Source: Pseudomonadota bacterium
Lineage (GTDB): Bacteria; Bdellovibrionota; FAC87; UBA2466
DNA length: 39,966 bases
Assembly: GCA_043767805.1 (NCBI GenBank)
Contig: JAYUGC010000026.1
Coordinates: forward strand, 1-39,966
Direction of reading: 5' to 3'
Under the pieces are notes generated by a model. That model saw only the letters and a program-made list of their open reading frames with translations. It made no database searches and was not told where the DNA came from. The translations under genes and the position numbers were made by a program. Each line of letters starts with the position of its first letter. The first letter of the stretch is position 1. Positions 6,397 through 37,966 of the stretch are shown one piece after another.

Positions 6397-9156
6397 ATGT
6401 TAAACCGCGATGTGGCTGCGGCTTTCGTGATTTCGGCGGCCGCTCTCATCTTTCAGTTCACACTCACGCGCGTGCTCTCGGTGCTCTATTGGCAGCACCT
6501 CGTTTACGCCATTTTAACGACATCGCTCTTGGGATTCGCCGCGAGCGGGACGGCGCTGAAAATCTCGAAGCGACTCCAAGGACTCACCACGACGGAGCTC
6601 GTCCGTTTTTGTTTTGCGGGCTTCGCGCTATCGAGCGTCCTGGGTGTATGGCTGGCGAGTTGGCTGGCGGGCGATTTCTTCACCTTGGGAGCCGCGAGTT
6701 TCACCGCTTCCAATGGCGTGCGCCTGGCGCTTTCCTACTTCTTTTCCGCCGTGCCTTTTTTCTTCTTCGGGTTACTCGTTCTGGGCCTCTTCTCGAAGAG
6801 TCCCGGACAGTCAGGCGTGCTTTACGCGGGCAACTTACTCGGCTCGGGGCTAGGCTCGCTCCTCTATCTAGGTCTCATGCGGCCCCTCGGTGCGTTGGGC
6901 GTGCTCCGGTGGTTGATCTTCCTTCCTTCGGCGCTGGCCGTCTTGTTTCCCGGTAAAGATCGAACCCCCGTTTCGAAAAGCCTCGCCTTTGCGCTTTTGG
7001 CCGCTCTCGTCGCGACGGGCTTTGTCGACATTTCCCCCGATCGGCACAAGCAGTATTGGACGCTCAGCTCCGATAAAGTCGTCGAGAAGAGTGAGTGGAA
7101 CGCCATTTCCCGGGTGGATGTCATCCGGGTTCCCAAAGGACGGCAGCGCCACATTCTGATAGATGGCGACGCGCAGACGGCTCTCGTGCCTCCCGCGGAC
7201 CGAGTGGAGAGAGAGGTTCGCTTTCGCATGGCGGAAGTTGGGTCTGAAGGCTTTCGGTTTGCGACCACGGGCTGGACGGAAGTCAGCGCGCTTTTCACGC
7301 TCGAGCTCTCGGGGCGCGAGACGGCGCGTAACGTGGTGCTTCAGCTCACTACGGGTGGCAATTCCTATCTGCAAAACGTCTCGGTTCCGGCCGGCCGGCC
7401 CGTCTCGTTTTTTGCGAGCTGGCGCGCGGAGGACAAGGCGAGCCGGGTTGCGGTGGACTTCGGACAGTTTGAGATGGCGAGCTGGCCCTCCTTCGCGCTT
7501 GGTCCAGAGACTACGATTTCGGTACAAGACGGAGCTCTGCTGAAGGCGATGCGCGTTTGGGATAAGGCACTCGATCGAGCTGAGCTCTATGCGTTTTCTC
7601 CGAACTACGGCGGCTATGAGCGGGTCGTGAGCCATGACCTCTTCAAGAAGGAAACGGGACGCGCCGAGGATCGGGTGCTCGTCATCGGAAATGGCGGCGG
7701 AGCGGACTCGGTCGCCGCGGCGAGGGCGGGGGCCATGCACATCACCGCCGTTGAAGTGAATCCCACGAGCTACTCGTTAGTGAAGGACGTCTACCGCGAC
7801 TACCTCGGGGATTTTTTCGCGCGCTCCAACGTCGATTTGAAGCTTGAGGACGGACGAAGCTTCGTGCGGCGGTCCACGGAGCGCTTCGATTTGATTGCTC
7901 TGGTCGGCGTCGACAGTTTGGCCGCGGCCAATTCCGGCGCGTACGTTTTAGCGGAGAGTTTTCTCTATACAGCGGAAGCTCTCGATGATTACTGGGCTCA
8001 TTTGAGCACCGAAGGAAAGCTTCAGATTAGCCGGTGGCACTTTCCGAAAACGCCTCGCGAGACACTTAGAATTTTCAGCATGGCGTACGAAAGTTTGGCC
8101 AGAAACGGGGTGGCCGATCCCACGCGCCATCTCGCCATGATTGCGCCAAAGGGCGCGGATCAATTGGACGGTTGTTTTGCGACTCTGCTCGTCTCTAAGG
8201 CCCCGTTTAGCGCGGCTTCTCTACCGGTACTGGCCTCCCTTGACGTCCTGTTTCACCCGCTAGTGGACGCCGGGCCTCGTCCCAATGCCTTTCATCGTTT
8301 CATTGCGTCGGCCAGAGACGGCAAAGCGGAAGCTTTTTATCAGGCCTATCCTTTTAACGTGAAGCCGGTCACCGACGATGCCCCCTTCTTTTTCCACTAC
8401 GGGAAGTTTTCTCAGCTCCTTCGCCCTTACGAGGTGGGCGTGGCTGGCTTCGACTCTATCCTCGGCCGCTGGCCGTTCTTTGTGCTCGCGGCACTCGTCC
8501 TGCAATGCCTACTCGGCGGCGTGCTCTTGGTGCTGCCTTTGGCCCGGCATTTGGAAAAAGGGAAGCCCTCGGGTTTCGCGTACTTCTCCTGTCTGGGCAT
8601 CGGGTTCATGTTCGTGGAGATGTTTCTCGTCCAAAAGCTGGTGCTCATGCTCGGGCATCCCATGTACTCCTTGGGGGTAACGCTGCCATCGCTTCTGGGA
8701 GCCGCGGCGCTCGGCAGTTATCTCTCGCGTGGCATTCGATTGGACGACCTTAAGACCCGTCTCGGGCTCTTTGCCGCCATTGCCGCCGTCATTTGTATGC
8801 TCGGGATAGCTTTGCCGTCCATTTTGGAAGCGACTCTGCCGCTTTCCTTTAGCGCGCGCGTGTGGGTTTGCGCCCTGATCACGTTTCCCGTGGGCATACT
8901 GCTTGGCATGCCCTTTCCGTCTGGACTGAGGGCGTTACCTCCGTCTGCGTTGTGTTTCGCGTGGGGAGTCAATGGAGCGTTCGGCGTTTTGGCTTCCGTG
9001 GTGGCGGTGATACTTGCCATGCAATTTGGCTTTTCGTTCCTGCTTATTCTTTCCGCTTTTCTCTACGCGAGCGCGGCGCTGGTCGCCCCCGTGAAGCAGA
9101 GCGTTTCGTTGAGTGAGCCGGCGCGCCCGTCATCTCTGAAGGAAGTCCTTCGTTAA
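6397..9156 (+). CDS. Membrane-bound spermidine-synthase-like SAM-binding protein
   Basis: N-terminal TM bundle (LYAGNLLGSGLG), WNAISRVDV, VLVIGNGGG, AVEVNP, EDGRSF, LYTAEA, VTDDAPFF, C-terminal TM bundle (GMPFPSGL, AWGVNG). Confidence 0.82.
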   Translation: MLNRDVAAAFVISAAALIFQFTLTRVLSVLYWQHLVYAILTTSLLGFAASGTALKISKRLQGLTTTELVRFCFAGFALSSVLGVWLASWLAGDFFTLGAASFTASNGVRLALSYFFSAVPFFFFGLLVLGLFSKSPGQSGVLYAGNLLGSGLGSLLYLGLMRPLGALGVLRWLIFLPSALAVLFPGKDRTPVSKSLAFALLAALVATGFVDISPDRHKQYWTLSSDKVVEKSEWNAISRVDVIRVPKGRQRHILIDGDAQTALVPPADRVEREVRFRMAEVGSEGFRFATTGWTEVSALFTLELSGRETARNVVLQLTTGGNSYLQNVSVPAGRPVSFFASWRAEDKASRVAVDFGQFEMASWPSFALGPETTISVQDGALLKAMRVWDKALDRAELYAFSPNYGGYERVVSHDLFKKETGRAEDRVLVIGNGGGADSVAAARAGAMHITAVEVNPTSYSLVKDVYRDYLGDFFARSNVDLKLEDGRSFVRRSTERFDLIALVGVDSLAAANSGAYVLAESFLYTAEALDDYWAHLSTEGKLQISRWHFPKTPRETLRIFSMAYESLARNGVADPTRHLAMIAPKGADQLDGCFATLLVSKAPFSAASLPVLASLDVLFHPLVDAGPRPNAFHRFIASARDGKAEAFYQAYPFNVKPVTDDAPFFFHYGKFSQLLRPYEVGVAGFDSILGRWPFFVLAALVLQCLLGGVLLVLPLARHLEKGKPSGFAYFSCLGIGFMFVEMFLVQKLVLMLGHPMYSLGVTLPSLLGAAALGSYLSRGIRLDDLKTRLGLFAAIAAVICMLGIALPSILEATLPLSFSARVWVCALITFPVGILLGMPFPSGLRALPPSALCFAWGVNGAFGVLASVVAVILAMQFGFSFLLILSAFLYASAALVAPVKQSVSLSEPARPSSLKEVLR

Positions 9157-10205
9157 ACGATCGCGAACTCGGTGAGCACGCCGTAGTGATCGGAGAGACG
9201 GGCGGGACCTTTGCCGGCTCCGCAGAGCGGCTGGTCGAAAATGACTTGGGACTCGGTCGGCACCAGCCGCGACGACTGGCTCGCGAAGATGTAATCGATG
9301 CGCGCATCGGGGCTGTTGCTGAAGTGGCCGCTCTTCTTGTACGGATTTCGTGAGTCGTCGGTGTGGCCCGGTGCCCCCCTCGCTCCGACTACTTCGAAAG
9401 TGTCTTCGAAATCGAGCTCTCCGCCTGGAGCGAAAAGCCCGTGCTCATAGGTCGCCCGAGTCGCTCCCACTTCTCTCGGAGCGGCATTCAAATCGACGCC
9501 TAGTAGAGCGGACTCCGAGGTGCGGGTCTTTTGGATCCACTGCGCGAGCTCCGCCGCTTGCTGCCCGCGTCGCGCGCCTTGGCTCAGATCGTAGTTTCCT
9601 TTTCTCGAATCGAAATCCACGGCGCCGAGGTGGCTGTTGTAGACGTCGATCCAGCCGAGAGACGGCACTTGAACGCTCGCTCTGAGCGCGCCCTTGGCGA
9701 CGAAGGCCTCGTCGGGCCGGGTCGAAGTGGAGAAGGCGAAAGCATCGAAACGTGGGCCGAGCGGATAGCGGGAAAAGATCTGTAGGCCATTTCCCATGGT
9801 CTTTTTCATTCTGTCGATGAGCAAGGAGCTCGCGGCCACCATGGCTAGGGCGCTTCCGCTCAAGGCGGAGACCACGCCGAGGTTGGTGCCGCCCGGAAAA
9901 AGGGAGGCGAGGCAAAGAGGCAGAAGGCCCGTCAGTGCTCCCGGCGATTGACCGGGAAGAGTGAAGCTTAGCTCGGGAATCTGAGAAGCCTCGTAGGGAT
10001 ACCCGTGCTTCGAGAAAGCGGCGCGAAGCTGGTTTCGTAGCTGGGAGTCCCAGACTTCCTGACAAAGCACGATGTCGGCGCCGGTGGCGGCCACCAGCCC
10101 TGGAACCAGCGCCGCTCGCTCGTCGATTTCCGGCGCGAGCGATACGCGGAAGGGAAGCCGAAGGAGCCAGGTATTGAGCGTTAGAACGCGAAGCTTCCGT
10201 CTCAT
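9153..10205 (-). CDS. Endonuclease/exonuclease/phosphatase (sphingomyelinase-like) protein
   Basis: LTLNTW, LCQEVW, GLQIFSRYP, KGAL, NSHL, GVDLNA, RIDYIF, SDHYGV; ATG 10205 with GGAGGG RBS. Confidence 0.85.
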   Translation of the reverse strand: MRRKLRVLTLNTWLLRLPFRVSLAPEIDERAALVPGLVAATGADIVLCQEVWDSQLRNQLRAAFSKHGYPYEASQIPELSFTLPGQSPGALTGLLPLCLASLFPGGTNLGVVSALSGSALAMVAASSLLIDRMKKTMGNGLQIFSRYPLGPRFDAFAFSTSTRPDEAFVAKGALRASVQVPSLGWIDVYNSHLGAVDFDSRKGNYDLSQGARRGQQAAELAQWIQKTRTSESALLGVDLNAAPREVGATRATYEHGLFAPGGELDFEDTFEVVGARGAPGHTDDSRNPYKKSGHFSNSPDARIDYIFASQSSRLVPTESQVIFDQPLCGAGKGPARLSDHYGVLTEFAIV

Positions 10206-31882: not shown

Positions 31883-33988
31883 ATGGGGAAGGGAATCAAA
31901 AGGATGGCTTGGCTGGCGGGGATCGCCGGCATGGCGATCGCTCTCCTCTGGTTCTCTCGGCGCGCCGCCTCGCCCGCGGACTTTACCTCGATCGTTGAAA
32001 CCACGGGAGTCGTGCTCACTTCGCGAGAGTTGCCGGATCGAAGCGGGGGGCAAAGCCGCAAGCCGGTGTTCATGAACGTTTCGGACTTGGATTTTTTGCC
32101 GGACGGCTCGGGGCGCTCGCTTCTCTCCCTGAATTACGGCACCGTCTATTTGCTCGGGCCGCAGTTCACTCCTGAGTCCTACTTGACCGTGCCGTCCGGA
32201 GTATCGGCGGCGGCAATCGAGGAGTTAAAGAAGCACCCGCAGCCCGATGGCTCCGAGGCGCACCCTTCGGATAACGAGGGACTGCTCGGCCTTACTCTCG
32301 ATCCGAGCTATGCCGAAAACCATTTTCTCTACGTGCATCTCGTTGCCAAGACATTGGGTGACGTGGAGATCTGGCGTCTCGTCTGGGACGCCAATCACCC
32401 CAATCCGCAAGCTTGGAAAACGCGTAAACTGCTTTACCGCGCGTCGAAAGCGGCCTTGCGTCCTTCCCCCACGGCGACCGAGCATAACGGCGGAAACCTC
32501 TCTTTCGGCCCCGATGGAAAGTTGTACGTTTTCTTTGGCTCGGGGGAAGGAAAAATCTTTTCCCCGCCCAAGGGAAACTATCTGACGAGCAATTTTACTC
32601 CGTGGGGAAAAGTCTGGCGGCTCGACCCGAGCGGGAAAACGCCGCCGGAGCTCGTCGCCAAAGGACTGCGAAATCCCTTTTCCAGCTCGTGGCTAGGAAA
32701 CTCACTTTTTATTGGCGACGTGGGCGCGGGCCGGGCCGATGCCGAAGAAATTAATTGGCTCGACGTCTCGTCGAAGGCCCGCAAGGTCCCCAACTTCGGC
32801 TGGCCCCTGGTCTTAGGCGGTAACTGCCGCCACGAGCCGTGTGGCGGGTATCGAAATCCGGCTCTTTTTTACGACGGCTTTAGCGTTCAAAGTCTGGCGG
32901 AAGAGGCTTTTCCCGCGGGAGGTCGTTCCCAGAATCCGGGGGCGATGAAATGCATCATTCTCGGTCCCGTGCTTTCCCCAAAAAGCCGGGTGCCCGAGCT
33001 GGCCGGCCGGCTCGTTTACGCCGATGCTCTGCAAATGTGGGTGCGCTCCGCGGTGGCCGCTCCCGATGGAACGCTCAGCCAGGATAAATTACTCACGGCG
33101 TACGATTCGTTCATTACAAAATTGGCGGAGAGCCCCGATGGATTTCTCTACTTGGTCTCTGGGTACGGAGATCCCATCCGCATCCGGCGCTACAGCTCCC
33201 GTTGGAAAGGGTCAGTCCCGGGCATTGCTCTGGCGGAGCCGGCTTACTTCAAGCCGAGCGCGGCTAACGAAACCGAGCTGTCCTATGACGTTTGGCACCC
33301 GATGCTTCCTGAAGGAACCCGCGCGACCCGTTCTCTCGTGCTTCCCAATCCTCAAGGGCATCAGAAGAAATGGCTCCGTAACGCGAGCTCGCTTCCCGCG
33401 GGGGCCTTTCTGTTACAGAAGATTTTCAAAGTTGGGCAAGCCGAACCGGAGGAGATGCGAGTCAGCGAGCATAATGCCCGGGGAGGGTGGGATTACTTTC
33501 ATTATCGTCGGAAAAAGGGCCGCTGGGAGCGCGATCTGAAGTCGGAGATGACGTGCGCAACGAGTTGCCACTCTTTTCTCCCCACCCTCGGCTACACGGC
33601 CTTACAAATACGAAGCCTTCAAAACGAATCTCTTTGGGTGGGTGAGCTTTTGACGGCGCGGCCGAGCGCATATCAGCTGAACGATCTCGAAAGGGTGCGG
33701 CATTTCTTGGACGGCTCCTGCGCGTCTTGCCACAGTCCGGGCGCTTCGCCGGGAGACAATCTCGGGCTTCGCCTGGATTGGCTGTCCACCGAGAAGCTCA
33801 GCACTCAAGTGTCGGGGCGCAGCGGGCGAAGGCTCGTCATCCCGGGCGACCCTCGGGCGAGTCTGCTCTTCGAAGTGCTCGGCGGCGGCGGAGGCGAGCC
33901 GTACATGCCGCCCCCGAGCACCGGTCTCAAGGCGGATCCCGCGGGCGCGAAGCTCGTCGAAAAGTGGATCCTTGCCCTGAAGCCTTAG
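31883..33988 (+). CDS. PQQ-type glucose/sorbosone dehydrogenase family protein with C-terminal cytochrome c
   Basis: EGLLGLTLDP, HNGGNLSFGPDGKLY, GLRNPF, GDVG, EEIN, NFGWP; CASCH heme motif, PGDP..SLL, MPP. Confidence 0.85.
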   Translation: MGKGIKRMAWLAGIAGMAIALLWFSRRAASPADFTSIVETTGVVLTSRELPDRSGGQSRKPVFMNVSDLDFLPDGSGRSLLSLNYGTVYLLGPQFTPESYLTVPSGVSAAAIEELKKHPQPDGSEAHPSDNEGLLGLTLDPSYAENHFLYVHLVAKTLGDVEIWRLVWDANHPNPQAWKTRKLLYRASKAALRPSPTATEHNGGNLSFGPDGKLYVFFGSGEGKIFSPPKGNYLTSNFTPWGKVWRLDPSGKTPPELVAKGLRNPFSSSWLGNSLFIGDVGAGRADAEEINWLDVSSKARKVPNFGWPLVLGGNCRHEPCGGYRNPALFYDGFSVQSLAEEAFPAGGRSQNPGAMKCIILGPVLSPKSRVPELAGRLVYADALQMWVRSAVAAPDGTLSQDKLLTAYDSFITKLAESPDGFLYLVSGYGDPIRIRRYSSRWKGSVPGIALAEPAYFKPSAANETELSYDVWHPMLPEGTRATRSLVLPNPQGHQKKWLRNASSLPAGAFLLQKIFKVGQAEPEEMRVSEHNARGGWDYFHYRRKKGRWERDLKSEMTCATSCHSFLPTLGYTALQIRSLQNESLWVGELLTARPSAYQLNDLERVRHFLDGSCASCHSPGASPGDNLGLRLDWLSTEKLSTQVSGRSGRRLVIPGDPRASLLFEVLGGGGGEPYMPPPSTGLKADPAGAKLVEKWILALKP

Positions 33989-34016
33989 ATACCTGGCTTA
34001 CCTCTCGGCATTTGAG

Positions 34017-34739
34017 TCAGGTGCCGACGCCGAAGCCGAGGGGCGTTTGGCAGGTGACCGCTTCTTGGCGGCCCCCGAAACCGGGCGACAGGTACAACTG
34101 AAGGCGCGATCTCAGTTGCGCGATGCCGCGGCCCCCGCCCAGCGCGAGGCCTGAGGGGGTGGCGATATTCCAGAAATAGACCGAAGCCTGATTGACTTCG
34201 TCGAACCCACTGATGCCGACGTCCATCTCGGAGACACCGGTGTAACAACGCGTGTAAGTGGTACCGGCGTTAGTAACCACTTCCACCGATAGCCCATTGG
34301 CGATCCGGCACTGTGAGACCACATTCACGTTTCCGCCGCCGAGCGGTACGGTGGCACGCATGGCCTGATTGCGGTCACAACAAGTGACACGGACTTGAGA
34401 TCGGTTACCAGCCGCCGCGGTAGTGAGCGGATTGAAGAGGTTGCAAGGCCGCAAATCGGCCAGCAAAATCACGGTGCCGGCTCTGCCGACGCCGAGTCCG
34501 ACCGTGGGTCCTGGAGGGTTTCTCTGAGTCATGGCGACGGCGGCGGCCCGATCGAAAAACCGTTTGAGATCTCTTTCGATGAACATGAGATCGGACTCGT
34601 TTTCCAGAGTCGCGCGGTTTTGGGAGTACATGTTTGTGAAATTTGTCAGAAGAGTCAGCGCGAAAACTAGCGCGGGGACGGAAATGCCGAGGGCGATGAG
34701 CATTTCGACTAGCGTGATCCCTCGTCGCTTTTGCTTCAC
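34017..34739 (-). CDS. Type IV minor pilin / pseudopilin (PilW/GspJ-like)
   Basis: KRRG|ITLVEMLIALG prepilin cleavage and methylation motif. Confidence 0.8.
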   Translation of the reverse strand: MKQKRRGITLVEMLIALGISVPALVFALTLLTNFTNMYSQNRATLENESDLMFIERDLKRFFDRAAAVAMTQRNPPGPTVGLGVGRAGTVILLADLRPCNLFNPLTTAAAGNRSQVRVTCCDRNQAMRATVPLGGGNVNVVSQCRIANGLSVEVVTNAGTTYTRCYTGVSEMDVGISGFDEVNQASVYFWNIATPSGLALGGGRGIAQLRSRLQLYLSPGFGGRQEAVTCQTPLGFGVGT

Positions 34740-35794
34740 TGAAGTGTCCCTTCCGAGGAGATATAACGTCTTTGGCCGGTTGGGTCCGCCTGAAAGCTGT
34801 TTATCCGTACGTTGACCCCGTCTTCACCAAATTCCACGTATTCGACGCAGCTATAGTCGACTGTGACGTGGAAGATAGTCTTGCTGCATTTGTTGGAGCT
34901 GCGGCATCGGCCGTTGTCTTGAATATAGGTGGCTTTACAACTGGTTAGGAGTTGCGGGGCTGGGCATTTCTGAGGGCAAGCAAAGGGCCAGCGAGCTCTG
35001 TTGCCGGCCGTGTTACTAAAATCGCCTCTAAAGATGGTTCGGTTTCGCTTCATCTCCCGAGCGACCACCATAATCGGTGAAAAACGGATGAAATGAGTGA
35101 CCCTAAGGGCGCCTCCGGCGGCGGCCGCGAGAGATTCGAACAGAACGCCGGAGGTGGTAAAGCCGGTGGACATGAGCCTCTTGCCCAAAGAGGAACTAAC
35201 AATATTGCGAGAGACGAGCGGGGAAGCGGCTAACGCCGTAGTGCCATTGGGTTGGGTGAGCGCAGCGTAAGAGCCGAGATTTACCCCGGTGGGTGAGCCA
35301 TTGTGGCAATTGAGGCAACCGGCTGCTGCCAAGGCGGGCCTGACCGTGTTGTCGAAGTAGGGTTGATCGAGCAAGGGATTAACTGCGCCCTGATTAAGAA
35401 TTCCCGCTTCCGGCCATTGATAAACCGCAGTGCGAACGGCATCTAGAGCGGTTTTTTGTCCCGCGGTGATGGGCGCCGGTATGGCATCGGGCACGCAAAT
35501 AGGGCCTCGAGCGGGTTGGGGGGCAGGGGGAATAGCACGGGGAGGGGGTGGACGATACTTCGTATAGGGATGCCCAGCGCAATTTGTGTGGAGCGCGTCC
35601 GTGACCGAAATGGCGAGGACAGCGTCGCGTACCGCAGCGTGCTCTCGCTGCAGAGAAGCGATGCGTTTATTTGCCTGTACGGATTGCAAAGCTTGAGACG
35701 AGAAAGAAAGACCAAGACTCATTAAGCCGGAAAGAATGGCCAAAGCCACGGTGACTTCGATGAGGGTAAAGCCTTCTCTGCGTCTGTTAATCAC
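34736..35794 (-). CDS. Prepilin-type protein with internal cytochrome-c-like CxxCH domain
   Basis: RREG|FTLIEVTVALA; YFDNTVRPALAAAGCLNCHNG...NLGSYAAL; start GTG 35794 (alternative ATG 35824). Confidence 0.75.
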   Translation of the reverse strand: MINRRREGFTLIEVTVALAILSGLMSLGLSFSSQALQSVQANKRIASLQREHAAVRDAVLAISVTDALHTNCAGHPYTKYRPPPPRAIPPAPQPARGPICVPDAIPAPITAGQKTALDAVRTAVYQWPEAGILNQGAVNPLLDQPYFDNTVRPALAAAGCLNCHNGSPTGVNLGSYAALTQPNGTTALAASPLVSRNIVSSSLGKRLMSTGFTTSGVLFESLAAAAGGALRVTHFIRFSPIMVVAREMKRNRTIFRGDFSNTAGNRARWPFACPQKCPAPQLLTSCKATYIQDNGRCRSSNKCSKTIFHVTVDYSCVEYVEFGEDGVNVRINSFQADPTGQRRYISSEGTLQ

Positions 35795-35799
35795 TGAGA

Positions 35800-35813
35800 A
35801 ATAGTATACTATT
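35800..35813. promoter_or_regulatory. Perfect palindrome AATAGTATACTATT, candidate bidirectional -10 element
   Basis: Reads TATACT on both strands between divergent pilin genes. Confidence 0.5.
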
Positions 35814-35822
35814 GGTTTATTC

Positions 35823-36497
35823 ATGGCCTCCAAAAAGATCATCGCCAATAGCAGGGGAATGGTTACGATCGGGATCGCTCTTACGATCGGCATTTTGATG
35901 ATCGCGGCCTTGCAGGCCTTCACGATGACGATTCAGCAAAAAACGAATCGGCTTCTGAAGCAGCTGCAAACGGAGAGACAGGTAGCCATCTTCGAAATGA
36001 TTTCCTCCCGTGTGCGTCAGGAGCTCAAACAGCAGTACATCGACTCCATCGACGGCAGTAAAGTCGACCCAGTGGAGCCCGTCCGTAGTCTCAACCATCT
36101 GTTCAGGCCGACTTCGAGGATTTTCAATAGAAATTTCCCTCGAGTTTTCGGCAAGGGCCAATTTCAGATCGATCTGCTCAATGGGGGCGGCCCCGCGACG
36201 GCTTTCGTGGCGCCCGAGGATGACGTGACTGTTTTCGTCAATCGGACCATAGGGCGGGGCTACCATTTGGTAACTGTTCAGACGTGGGTTTGCCGGAACG
36301 TAGTCTATGGGCGGGTTCGTTATCCTGCAGAAACGAGATTGGCCCCTAACCCAGGGCGGGGAATCGCTTGGCCGATTCGCTGCCCTGCCAATAGTTCCGT
36401 GGTGGTGAATCACACCTTCTATGTGAACATCTGCTCTCCTGTCTTTTCCCGCGGGGCCCGGCCCGATCCCGCCGGGGTCGCGCCCTGGTGCCCTTGA
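35823..36497 (+). CDS. Pilin-like protein without Glu5 (PilX/GspK-like)
   Basis: NSRG|MVTIGIALTIGILMIAAL class III-like signal; Cys-containing C-terminus. Confidence 0.6.
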   Translation: MASKKIIANSRGMVTIGIALTIGILMIAALQAFTMTIQQKTNRLLKQLQTERQVAIFEMISSRVRQELKQQYIDSIDGSKVDPVEPVRSLNHLFRPTSRIFNRNFPRVFGKGQFQIDLLNGGGPATAFVAPEDDVTVFVNRTIGRGYHLVTVQTWVCRNVVYGRVRYPAETRLAPNPGRGIAWPIRCPANSSVVVNHTFYVNICSPVFSRGARPDPAGVAPWCP

Positions 36498-36508
36498 ATA
36501 GAGATTCC

Positions 36509-37228
36509 ATGCCCGTCAGAGGAACTATTTCTGCGAAGGGGGTACAGTTCGCGGGAGCCGTTCTCCTGTTGTGGGGGATCGCCAACACCGTGGTTGATTT
36601 CCAGCGGTATGGGCTCTCCGCGGGCGTTTATTGGTGGTTCTGCAATCTAGCCCTGACCGGAGTCGGCTTTGGGTGCCTGATCAAAGATCGCGGCTTTGTC
36701 GTCGGTTTTTTGGCGATCTCGCTGTTCACGCAAATGTTTTGGATAGTCGACGATCTCTCGATGCTCCTGTTCAAGCAGAGCACCTTCGGTCTCGCGATTT
36801 TTAGGCACGCGCCTGATTACCCTTTGGACGAGTTTCTTCTGGCCCAATATCATTACTTCACGATTCCGATCGCGTTTCTCGGCTGGGGTTGTGCCGAGTT
36901 CAAACGCGGATCGGCCGTGGCTCGGGTGGCTCTCTTCAATCCTTTGATTTTTGGCGTCTCGTACTTCGTATTTCCGGCCTCGGCCAACATCAATTGTATT
37001 CATACCAGCTGCGTTCCGACGCTTCCGTGGAGCGGCCCGGTTTACGCCTTTGGATTTTGGCTGGTGATTTTCATCATTCACTTGGCGGTCGCTTGGGGTC
37101 TCGAGCGCTTGAGGGTCTCTCCCTGGGTTAACTCGGAGGAGGGGTCACAGCGGGTCAATCTTTTAGTGAGTTTGCTGCTCGGCTTCGGTGCCTTGTGCAG
37201 CCTTTACGGGATGTCCTCCCGGTTCTGA
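36509..37228 (+). CDS. Integral membrane hypothetical protein
   Basis: Multiple TM helices; WWFCN, H..TIP and NINC motifs; ATG 36509. Confidence 0.7.
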   Translation: MPVRGTISAKGVQFAGAVLLLWGIANTVVDFQRYGLSAGVYWWFCNLALTGVGFGCLIKDRGFVVGFLAISLFTQMFWIVDDLSMLLFKQSTFGLAIFRHAPDYPLDEFLLAQYHYFTIPIAFLGWGCAEFKRGSAVARVALFNPLIFGVSYFVFPASANINCIHTSCVPTLPWSGPVYAFGFWLVIFIIHLAVAWGLERLRVSPWVNSEEGSQRVNLLVSLLLGFGALCSLYGMSSRF

Positions 37229-37243
37229 GGCCCGAAGGCCGGA

Positions 37244-37966
37244 CTATTTAGGTGAGGAGTTGCCGACGAAAGTCATGGGATAGAGCAGCTCTCCCGCGAT
37301 GCCGCCGCGCCGCTCAATGTCCTGACACATTTCCCGGTAGGAGTCGGAAAGCTCGCCCTTGGCAAGATAGGTGCGATAAATCGCCGCGACCCACGGGCGC
37401 GTCTGCGCGGGCAAGGGAATGACGTAAATGCGCCCCGGCTCGACTTCGAGCACAGGAGTTCCGGGAGGAACCCGCACGTCGACATAGGCGCCAGTCTCCG
37501 CGCGTCCCACCCACCCCGCTTTTACTTCGGGAAGCGTCAAAAAGACTCCGGTCACGTCCTCGTACACTTTGCGATAAAGAATCGGGGATACTTCCTCGTA
37601 GGTCACGAAGGAGTTGGCGAGGCCTCCGGATTGCCGAATGCGCCCCACGGTTTCCTGTCCATCGGTGTAATGCCTAAAGATCAAATTCTCCGGTGCTTTC
37701 ACCCAACGCGCGTTTTTGGGGAATCCCTTTACCCGAATCTGCTGCGTCTTTAAGTCCGAGGCCGGGGTCAAAGCATGCTCCACCGGTGCCTGACCAAGAG
37801 ACGGATTCCACCGCTCGGCTATCTTTTGTGAGAGACGGCGTACGTCCTCCGCGGCAAGCTGCTCGTACTCGGTGCATTTATCCGCCGAGCTCGGCGTGCG
37901 GATGACTGGGGGAGTCAGCGCGCAACCGGCGACGAGAAAGGACATCCCAAAGATCAGAGAGCGCAT
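37244..37966 (-). CDS. Lipoprotein with possible ADP-ribosyltransferase-like (HYD1-type) domain
   Basis: Lipobox LVAGC; FRHYTD..IRQSGGLANS..GVFLT..AYVDVRV; AGGAG RBS. Confidence 0.55.
   Translation of the reverse strand: MRSLIFGMSFLVAGCALTPPVIRTPSSADKCTEYEQLAAEDVRRLSQKIAERWNPSLGQAPVEHALTPASDLKTQQIRVKGFPKNARWVKAPENLIFRHYTDGQETVGRIRQSGGLANSFVTYEEVSPILYRKVYEDVTGVFLTLPEVKAGWVGRAETGAYVDVRVPPGTPVLEVEPGRIYVIPLPAQTRPWVAAIYRTYLAKGELSDSYREMCQDIERRGGIAGELLYPMTFVGNSSPK

Follow-up and report, generated by a model that had tools for sequence, protein, structure and literature searches.

The window, the whole stretch of 39,966 nucleotides analysed here (contig JAYUGC010000026.1), carries on its minus strand the gene of a pilin-like protein with a CxxCH motif, P0001, at 34736..35824, with its stop codon at 34736-34738. 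In the ORF list of the window the frame runs over 34736..35923, starts with a GTG and would give 395 aa, whereas a start at the ATG at 35824 leaves 362 aa with an N-terminus reading MNKPIVYY. The closest homologue, P0004 (360 aa, 52-56% identity), opens with MNKRIVYY, so the ATG start is taken as right and the gene limits proposed by the sequence-only reading are borne out. The translation contains ten Cys (82, 110, 170, 173, 283, 287, 296, 307, 313 and 326) and six His. As that reading had also reported, it includes a single CxxCH, C170-L-N-C173-H174 (35303..35317, minus strand), the signature of heme c attachment. Among all stop-to-stop frames of at least 100 aa in the window, the motif occurs in only two, P0001 and a neighbouring PSCyt1 protein, P0003.

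P0001 is a type IV pilin-like protein with a class III signal. Its leader (aa 1-18, MNKPIVYYFSVINRRREG; 35771..35824, minus strand) ends with the cleavage-site Gly18, kept in 14 of the 15 aligned family members. It is followed by the mature N-terminus F19-T-L-I-E23 and a long alpha1 helix (aa 19-70; 35615..35770, minus strand) where E61 and E23, the mature E5, are invariant in 15 of 15. Pfam N_methyl (PF07963) matches at 26.0 bits for a cut-off of 21.2 and TIGR02532 at 25.9 bits for a cut-off of 16.3, both confirming the prepilin N-terminus first read from the sequence. The N_methyl match recurs at E<=1 in 8 of the 13 members scanned. A profile search of the PDB matched P0001 to pilins over their N-termini only, with a Geopilin domain 1 protein ranking first (E=3.3e-4). 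No family member reached the cut-off of the GspK, PilX and PilW profiles, and matches to the GspJ, GspH, GspI, PilV and ComG families were N-terminal and sub-threshold only.

An exhaustive phmmer search over 1.84 billion representatives returned 13 matches at E<=1e-3, of which 12 are proteins of 332-508 aa with a pilin-like N-terminus and one CxxCH, and a profile search supplied two further relatives. Word-indexed homologue searches gave one relative in one case and four in another, and tblastn against plasmid sequences gave zero matches. The resulting alignment has 15 rows, P0001 and 14 relatives at 19-56% identity, with a mean column identity of 27% and a median of 1.13 changes per column on the end branches of the tree. 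P0012, a repetitive protein of 3000 aa with a repeated weak match to aa 136-180 that lacks CxxCH, was left out of the alignments. Judged from these comparisons, the P0001 family is small, deeply diverged and without a name. Taxon and gene context were seen for one of the 14 relatives, which comes from a Pseudobdellovibrionaceae MAG.

Only 12 columns of the alignment are invariant, and three of them are C170, C173 and H174. Each of the 15 members has exactly one CxxCH, and its invariance at such a low mean column identity implies that the motif is there by more than chance. Loss of the His had been named as the outcome that would speak against a heme; H174 is kept in 15 of 15 members across very long branches. 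The proteins contain 10-24 Cys each, several of which are invariant besides the CxxCH pair. C110 is one of these and lies just before the end of a Pro-rich stretch (aa 90-118; 35471..35557, minus strand). This stretch corresponds to the linker described earlier, which is indeed present but is variable and even deleted in P0004. Further downstream, the C-terminal beta region includes a Cys-rich portion (C283, C287, C296, C307, C313 and C326; 34847..34978, minus strand) in which C283 and C287 are invariant, and the extreme C-terminus is conserved as S-x-G-x-L-x (SEGTLQ; 34739..34756, minus strand) with an invariant G359.

The sequence-only reading saw no clear distal ligand for a heme iron, a view that the family alignment revises by offering two conserved His as candidates. 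The first, H85, belongs to an H85-P86-Y87 motif (35564..35572, minus strand) in which the His and the Pro are invariant in 15 of 15 members and position 87 is always aromatic; it could be a ligand or a pocket residue. The second, H244 (35093..35095, minus strand), lies at +74 from CxxCH, and its single alignment column holds a His, 61-82 residues past the motif, in 13 of 15 members. The remaining two, the sisters P0013 and P0014, have a His at +93 and +98, beyond long inserts, and an HG 4-8 residues upstream of the H244 column. A co-variation of H62 with H244 was considered and rejected as evidence, since both sequences lacking the two residues are sisters and the pattern represents a single event. 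No conserved Met is available as a distal ligand in the 15-row alignment, where M218 and M258 vary. In about 90% of cytochromes c the second ligand follows the motif at a distance of about 60 residues, according to the accessible part of Herfurth et al. 2022 (PMC8833165).

Cytochrome c family profiles from Pfam and NCBIfam matched 0 of 15 members, which we count against the presence of a heme. The Pfam thresholds were E<=1 for 13 members and E<=0.01 for two, and the last 240 aa of P0001, taken alone, were scanned at E<=10; the NCBIfam threshold was E<=5. The PSCyt1 profile (PF07635) matched none of the 15, nor the C-terminal 240 aa of P0001 at E<=10. The suggested scan for N_methyl plus cytochrome c domains thus upheld its pilin half but not its cytochrome half. 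In the PDB profile search, P0001 met cytochrome c6 at an E-value of about 1. Family-named neighbours by language model are mostly cytochrome c families (0.82-0.85), and ESM Atlas scores reach 0.78-0.85, both to be taken as leads only.

The likeness to planctomycete-type cytochromes proposed earlier fares little better. P0001 and PSCyt1 (PF07635) do share a context in which CxxCH comes after an aromatic residue, V/I, P and L and is itself followed by G and then by a G-[RK]-[RK]-L-L stretch, and the best hhalign and BLASTP matches of P0001 to the neighbouring P0003 fall exactly on the PSCyt1 CxxCH domain. However, the P0001 family is without the MPP Met, and its spacing before the first Cys presumably differs by one residue from what we take to be the PSCyt1 consensus. 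When P0001 was compared by hhalign with the PSCyt1 domain of P0003, 8 of 200 shuffles with C, C and H fixed scored as well, so homology to PSCyt1 is not supported. The surroundings of the motif are alike, but the resemblance is marginal and has no profile match behind it. A search with the PSCyt1 part of P0003 recovered the window's own copy only.

Two AlphaFold2 models were built from 15-row alignments, one of the full length and one of aa 72-262, with mean pLDDT of 74.2 and 72.9. The full model has a helix at 21-70 and strands at 241-361 with pLDDT 55-90. A helix at aa 154-167, bearing the conserved F157, V161, P163 and L165, precedes CxxCH, and nowhere is the model more confident than in this helix and the motif (pLDDT 91-93 for the blocks of 151-170). 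The modelled secondary structure suggests that CxxCH belongs to a segment, helical for the most part, between the pilin alpha1 and the C-terminal Cys-rich beta region, hence an inserted module and not a C-terminal appendage. Foldseek against the PDB gave 0 matches at E<=0.001 for the full model, itself of moderate confidence, and a best E of 2.6 for the equally moderate-confidence 72-262 model. Neither Foldseek listing contained a c-type cytochrome or a type IV pilin, and structure prediction, proposed earlier as a check, has thus failed to point to a cytochrome. A complex prediction of P0001 (44-362), heme and P0002 (32-240), the latter encoded by the next gene, had a score of 0.00 and a mark of 0.32, and has no bearing either way.

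These results bring forward a heme-free alternative, in which P0001 would be a Cys-rich minor pilin whose CxxCH only mimics the cytochrome signature. Here C170 and C173 would form a disulfide, or a metal site (e.g. Zn or Cu) with a His, and stabilise an adhesive or structural insert. Such uses of the CxxC are conceivable because the protein is Cys-rich, and the extracellular setting, the missing cytochrome profiles and cytochrome c fold, the marginal PSCyt1 likeness and the weak match of P0012 to aa 136-180 without a CxxCH are all consistent with them. A disulfide, however, leaves both the invariant H174 and the conserved downstream His unexplained, and a His adjoining a liganding Cys rarely binds the same metal. 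The conserved amphipathic helix before the motif, with its Phe/Tyr, Val/Ile, Pro and Leu, also speaks for a cytochrome, since class I cytochromes c show such a helix before CxxCH. On balance we regard a protein devoid of heme as a possible but rather unlikely explanation.

Downstream of P0001 on the same strand, a 240-aa pilin-like protein, P0002 (34017..34739, minus strand; KRRG/ITLVE), begins at a GTG and overlaps the P0001 stop by 4 nt. Its N_methyl score of 20.9 bits is just below the cut-off of 21.2, and its best PDB profile matches (E 0.02-0.09), none of them convincing, are to proteasome subunits and to a sub-threshold, N-terminal Geopilin domain 1 protein. On the other side, a divergent gene (35823..36497, plus strand) encodes 224 aa with a pilin-like hydrophobic N-terminus that lacks E5 (SRG/MVTIGIAL...), its ATG overlapping that of P0001 within CATG. 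This protein had no family match in Pfam or NCBIfam and no PDB profile match. The fourth member (36488..37228, plus strand) is a multi-pass membrane protein of 246 aa, likewise with no match in Pfam, NCBIfam or the PDB profile search.

The same four genes are found at a related locus, L001, in the Pseudobdellovibrionaceae MAG, which was found from a two-row alignment. P0002 has there a 64% identical homologue in the same position with an ATGA overlap, the E5-less protein one of equal identity (64%) that is again placed head to head, and the membrane protein two tandem copies at 66-72% identity. Synteny between the window and L001 is limited to these four genes, where the 4-nt overlap is kept as well as the CATG of the head-to-head pair, and the four-gene module with P0001 is conserved between the two. 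A promoter and terminator scan of 33800-37400 found nothing above shuffles. Genes for pilus machinery, for PilY1 and for cytochrome c maturation are missing from both the 40-kb window and L001, an absence that we count against a heme-bearing pilin. The genome makes c-type cytochromes, as indicated by P0003, a predicted one that passes the PSCyt1 cut-off (22.4 bits versus 22).

With neither machinery nor PilY1 nearby and a multi-pass membrane protein conserved in the module, P0001 might also be a heme c protein that never enters an extended filament. Its class III signal would then serve as an inner-membrane anchor or build only a short periplasmic pseudopilus, and the protein would act as a tethered periplasmic cytochrome together with the adjoining membrane protein. 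At ~34 kDa the mature protein would be a large subunit for the body of a filament, and six of the 15 members have weak N-terminal matches to type II secretion pseudopilins such as GspJ, all below cut-off, in agreement with this scheme. A plain anchor would, however, require neither the invariant E5 nor two more pilin-like genes in the module, both of which fit a priming or tip set, and we consider such a tethered cytochrome improbable.

Our preferred reading, to which we give roughly even credence, is that P0001 is a minor pilin or pseudopilin carrying a single covalent heme c whose ligation is probably bis-His. The preprotein would be inserted into the inner membrane. The class III signal of pilins leaves the globular part on the periplasmic side of that membrane, and the CxxCH is therefore predicted to be periplasmic. 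Prepilin peptidase would cleave after G18 and the cytochrome c maturation system of the cell would join heme to C170 and C173, and H174 would bind the iron as proximal ligand. A conserved His, either H85 of the HP[YFW] motif or H244 at +74, may fill the sixth position to yield a low-spin bis-His monoheme, and the other Cys would form disulfides. We infer that P0001 is a low-abundance (minor) subunit which, with the translationally coupled P0002 and the E5-less pilin-like protein, would take part in priming or capping a type IV filament or a pseudopilus. In a Bdellovibrionota-type bacterium, the heme would in this way become part of the priming complex or of the tip of the filament. Taken in full, as a filament subunit with covalent heme c that forms a redox-active iron centre at one of these places and is served by a dedicated four-gene module, the proposal is a tentative one that we hold at well under even confidence.

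The nearest known relation between a heme and the pilus is TfcP (Mxan_0363) of Myxococcus xanthus, from a lineage formerly grouped with Bdellovibrio. The accessible part of Herfurth et al. 2022 (PMC8833165) describes TfcP as a cytochrome c of non-canonical type that belongs to the minor pilin/PilY1 cluster_1, encoded beside pilY1, soluble in the periplasm, with a type I signal peptide and a distal Cys ligand. It acts on PilY1 and was not found in pili, and the authors argue in the same part that it serves the priming of type IVa pili as a structural or accessory factor and is not an electron carrier. As far as this description allows, TfcP and P0001 are alike in being single-CxxCH c-type heme proteins, a putative one for P0001, tied genetically to minor pilin genes. 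Compared by description only, P0001 is unlike TfcP in its class III signal, in a CxxCH carried within the pilin-like protein itself, in the lack of a nearby PilY1 and in a likely distal His. By analogy with TfcP, we favour a structural or redox/gas-sensing role for the putative heme over long-range electron conduction.

A parallel of another kind is provided by modular type IV pilins such as PilB and PilC of Streptococcus sanguinis, GspK, CofB and ComZ (Raynaud et al. 2021, PMC8179133, accessible part). In these proteins, as may be the case in P0001, the pilin module is joined by a further functional module, and its expected place is the tip of the filament (PMC8179133, same part). GspK as described there also has an extra alpha-domain inserted within the pilin fold, an arrangement suggested for P0001 by the AlphaFold2 secondary structure. 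The extra module of P0001 differs in holding a CxxCH. Within the accessible part of that survey, none of nine cytochrome accessions appears among its 264 architectures (Raynaud et al. 2021, PMC8179133, Dataset S1). The sequence-only reading did not know the architecture from characterised systems, and a pilin with a CxxCH was indeed found neither in the literature searched nor in what was accessible of this 2021 InterPro survey of modular pilins (PMC8179133). We find it recurring as a family of 15 aligned members.

The pairing of a pilin N-terminus with CxxCH also evokes a major subunit of a conductive, heme-studded pilus for extracellular electron transfer. This pairing is all that favours such a function, which we judge highly improbable. 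With one heme per ~340-residue subunit, heme-to-heme contact along the filament would be unlikely. The family is rare (13 matches in 1.84 billion representatives), its sole relative with a named organism comes from the Pseudobdellovibrionaceae MAG, and thus from a group that to our knowledge is not noted for metal respiration, and the gene layout resembles a minor-pilin set and not a major pilin locus. OmcS-type wires are multiheme cytochrome polymers without a pilin N-terminus, and we know of no Geobacter pilin that carries a heme. With the filaments of Geobacter, too, one has to ask in what way hemes and filaments come together outside the cell, whereas P0001 has a single heme motif on a pilin-like subunit in a lineage that is not known to respire metals. 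The PilA-N/PilA-C pili of Geobacter (PMC5566968, accessible part) were included in this comparison.

The long dispute over extracellular electron conduction has had two protagonists, the type IV filaments and the c-type cytochromes. They have been known so far only as separate molecules: heme-less pilins, pilin-less cytochrome polymers and, with TfcP, a soluble helper. Should the motif bind no heme, the family would still define a conserved minor-pilin module that has no name and whose invariant set of Cys and His lacks an explanation. Should our reading be true, a pilin-like subunit with its own covalent heme would represent a third arrangement, and a cofactor-bearing module would join the catalogue of modular pilins. 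Behind the heme centre would stand a dedicated module of four genes, with an uncharacterised membrane protein among their products. Such a subunit would also make it possible to test what a redox centre does on a filament in predatory bacteria, where the heme might allow the sensing of oxygen, nitric oxide or redox state on contact, or a contact-dependent electron transfer or oxidative chemistry directed towards prey.

The pilin-like CxxCH protein under study (P0001) is encoded on the minus strand, in an open reading frame that spans 34736..35923 and counts 395 aa in the ORF listing if taken from a GTG. An ATG at 35824 yields a 362-aa product whose N-terminus, MNKPIVYY, matches the MNKRIVYY of its closest homologue (P0004, 360 aa); because these start residues are common to both, the coordinates 34736-35824 assigned by the sequence-only reading hold. 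The prepilin N-terminus that it had recognized, an 18-residue leader ending in Gly and followed by FTLIE, is borne out by N_methyl of Pfam (26.0 bits, cut-off 21.2) and by TIGR02532 (25.9 bits, cut-off 16.3). The CxxCH lies where it had been placed, at aa 170-174 (35303-35317, minus strand), in a protein with the 10 Cys previously counted and 6 His. Across all frames of at least 100 aa, the window holds just two such motifs, the other being in a neighbouring gene. The Pro-rich linker is present at aa 90-118 (35471-35557, minus strand) but is lineage-specific rather than conserved: P0004 lacks 14 of its residues, and other members carry unrelated loops there.

A word-indexed homologue search with P0001 found one relative only, and phmmer, run exhaustively against 1.84 billion representatives, retrieved 13 proteins at E≤1e-3; twelve are 332-508 aa long, begin like a pilin and contain a CxxCH. 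The thirteenth, a 3000-aa repetitive fn3-rich protein (P0012), matches aa 136-180 of P0001 weakly seven times, four of them above threshold, and lacks a CxxCH at the matching position. It was rejected as a family member, its likeness being probably a chance similarity multiplied by its repeats. A profile search contributed two further members. The resulting alignment of 15 rows, P0001 included and P0012 left out, spans 19-56% identity to P0001 with a mean column identity of 27%, and only 12 of its columns are invariant: E23 (E5 of the mature pilin), E61, H85, P86, C110, C170, C173, H174, G214, C283, C287 and G359. Every member carries exactly one CxxCH. The maximum-likelihood tree of the family has very long branches (end-branch median of 1.13 changes per column), and the invariance of the motif across them indicates strong constraint. 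A variable His would have spoken against the heme proposal; H174 is as constant as C170 and C173 in 15/15 rows, which counts in favour of a functional motif. The extreme C-terminus, S/T-x-G-x-L/F/I-x, is also shared by all 15 members, with G359 in P0001 aa 357-362 (34739-34756, minus strand). Such a conserved C-terminus is unusual for pilins.

By profile or fold, the segment around the motif is not demonstrably a cytochrome c domain. The scan for N_methyl plus cytochrome c domains suggested earlier recovered the former above its cut-off in P0001 but cytochrome families in 0/15 members. Pfam gave no cytochrome match in 13 members at E≤1, in the two others at E≤0.01, or in the C-terminal 240 aa of P0001 at E≤10, and NCBIfam, searched with all 15 at E≤5, returned only N-terminal pilin or pseudopilin families. 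Against PDB sequences the family profile matched pilin N-termini, best of all a Geopilin domain 1 protein (E=3.3e-4), and weakly, at E ~1, a cytochrome c6 over the helix-plus-CxxCH part. AlphaFold2 models built with the 15-row alignment reached a mean pLDDT of 74.2 for whole P0001 and 72.9 for aa 72-262. They comprise a helix (aa 21-70), a small hairpin (aa 88-112), helices at aa 121-140 and 154-167 running into the CxxCH turn (pLDDT 91-93 for blocks 151-170), short helices at aa 186-190 and 212-216, and strands of lower confidence (aa 241-361). With both moderate-confidence models, Foldseek found nothing in the PDB at E≤0.001 and listed neither a c-type cytochrome nor a type IV pilin, so that structure prediction did not uphold a cytochrome c fold. 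The absence of profile and fold matches speaks for a Cys-rich minor pilin with a disulfide or metal site and no heme, a rather unlikely reading that does not account for a His always following the second Cys. Covalent heme attachment to P0001 is, in our judgement, moderately probable.

The motif context had been likened to planctomycete-type cytochrome c domains, and the best local alignments do fall on a PSCyt1 domain. It forms the C-terminus of P0003, a 701-aa neighbour (31883-33988, plus strand) with a glucose/sorbosone dehydrogenase-type propeller, and itself barely passes the Pfam cut-off (22.4 bits vs 22). P0003 carries CASCH in this domain and CATSCH (CxxxCH) upstream; it also partially matches the SO2930 diheme family. 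BLASTP aligned P0001 with P0003 from the CxxCH onward (21/69 identical, E=0.012 for a single comparison), and the sole hhalign match of the family profile on P0003 was to the PSCyt1 domain (E=0.023, probability 2%). The family columns of aa 140-262 scored 27.0 against P0003 595-701; 200 shuffles of the P0003 segment in which C, C and H kept their positions averaged 20.6 (sd 3.4). A likeness beyond the motif is thus hinted at, yet 8/200 of these anchored shuffles reached 27.0, which leaves homology to PSCyt1 undemonstrated. Language-model neighbours of aa 118-250 that bear a family name belong mostly to cytochrome c families, including PSCyt1 (16% of one cluster), PccH, Cytochrom_C and Paired_CXXCH_1; their scores of 0.82-0.85, like the 0.78 for aa 120-362, provide leads only.

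That no distal MPP ligand is visible was correct as far as Met is concerned: there is no MPP-type Met, and no Met is conserved in the 15-row alignment, M218 and M258 being variable. Two His are nevertheless candidate distal ligands. H244 lies 74 residues past the motif and is His in 13/15 sequences; Herfurth et al. (PMC8833165) place the second ligand of ~90% of cytochromes c, Met or His, ~60 residues past the motif. The other two rows, P0013 and P0014, branch together as sisters (100/98) and have an HG 4-8 residues upstream of the H244 column, after long inserts. H62 is also absent from both, and because both losses fall on one event in the tree, H62 and H244 were not counted as co-varying. 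H85, the other candidate, begins an H-P-aromatic motif that is invariant in the family; C82 precedes this motif and the likewise invariant C110 follows it.

P0001 is encoded within a compact group of genes. Next downstream, the gene of the 240-aa pilin-like P0002 (34017-34739, minus strand) overlaps the P0001 stop by 4 nt with its GTG start; the protein begins with KRRG followed by ITLVE, and its N_methyl score of 20.9 bits is slightly below the cut-off. On the other side, head-to-head with P0001, a gene at 35823-36497 (plus strand) encodes a 224-aa protein with a pilin-like hydrophobic N-terminus, no Glu at +5 and no Pfam or NCBIfam match. The two ATGs overlap in the palindrome CATG (35822-35825), which leaves no intergenic region, so that each promoter must sit inside the opposite gene. 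After a 10-nt overlap follows a gene for a 246-aa multi-pass membrane protein (36488-37228, plus strand) that belongs to no known family by Pfam, NCBIfam or PDB profile search and has invariant His (H122, H172, H198), Cys and a YWWFCN stretch. In a reading that we hold to be improbable, P0001 would be a heme protein using its pilin-type N-terminus merely as a membrane tether or in a short pseudopilus, perhaps with this membrane protein as a working partner.

The single genome locus found for the family (L001, from an uncultured Pseudobdellovibrionaceae MAG) repeats this four-gene layout down to the ATGA overlap and the head-to-head CATG (10000-10003); there the membrane protein is duplicated in tandem (8637-9359 and 7909-8634, minus strand). 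The four proteins of the window are 52-72% identical to those of the MAG, and it is this identity that suggests a Bdellovibrionota-type genome as the source of the window. blastp of ORFs of at least 80 aa between window and locus yielded no further shared genes, the leftover matches being shadow frames of these four. Since nothing beyond these four genes is common to both, they constitute a conserved module at different places in two genomes. Neither window nor L001 holds genes for pilus machinery, PilY1 or cytochrome c maturation. The P0003 gene is convergent to the pilin pair and has no homologue within the 21-kb L001. At 37244-37966 (minus strand), an ORF of 240 aa starts like a lipoprotein (LVAGC) and matches no family; it is outside the module because it has no counterpart in L001. 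A 919-aa ORF (6397-9156, plus strand) has no Pfam match at E≤0.001, and several other window ORFs of 200-470 aa are also without family.

In function, the closest precedent is TfcP of M. xanthus, a cytochrome c that contributes to pilus formation and not to electron transport. According to PMC8833165, this soluble protein carries a type I signal peptide, has its heme ligated by His and Cys, and acts on PilY1; pili do not contain it. P0001 lies outside the TfcP family. In architecture, the modular pilins come closest (Raynaud et al. 2021, PMC8179133), among which GspK is cited for an extra domain inserted within the pilin fold. Dataset S1 of that paper, with 264 architectures, contains none of nine cytochrome accessions (IPR009056, IPR036909, IPR011429, IPR036280, IPR012286, PF00034, PF13442, PF07635, PF09699), nor the words cytochrome, heme or haem. 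When full-text literature, in which subscription journals are mostly uncovered, was searched for CxxCH or covalent heme on a pilin or on a protein with a class III signal, only TfcP papers and unrelated genome papers came up. Within these sources, the architecture is indeed not known from characterised systems.

P0001 has a class III signal and a filament-type α1 helix with the invariant E5, its family a single invariant CxxCH with conserved His candidates, and its module two more pilin-like proteins. Drawing on established pilin and cytochrome c biology, the prepilin would enter the inner membrane so that its globular domain faces the periplasm, and its leader would be cleaved after G18. C170 and C173 would receive heme from a maturation system; H174 would be the proximal ligand and H85 or H244 the distal ligand of a bis-His monoheme, while the remaining Cys would form disulfides. 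P0001, P0002 and the E5-less protein would then jointly prime a type IV filament or pseudopilus or make up its tip. We consider this whole proposal, a heme-bearing pilin-like subunit in such a priming or tip set, about evenly balanced. One heme per ~340-residue subunit cannot build a heme chain, and P0001 is most improbable as the major subunit of a conductive heme pilus. For this reason, and with TfcP as a precedent for a cytochrome c that aids pilus formation, we favour a heme whose role in this family would be structural or sensing.
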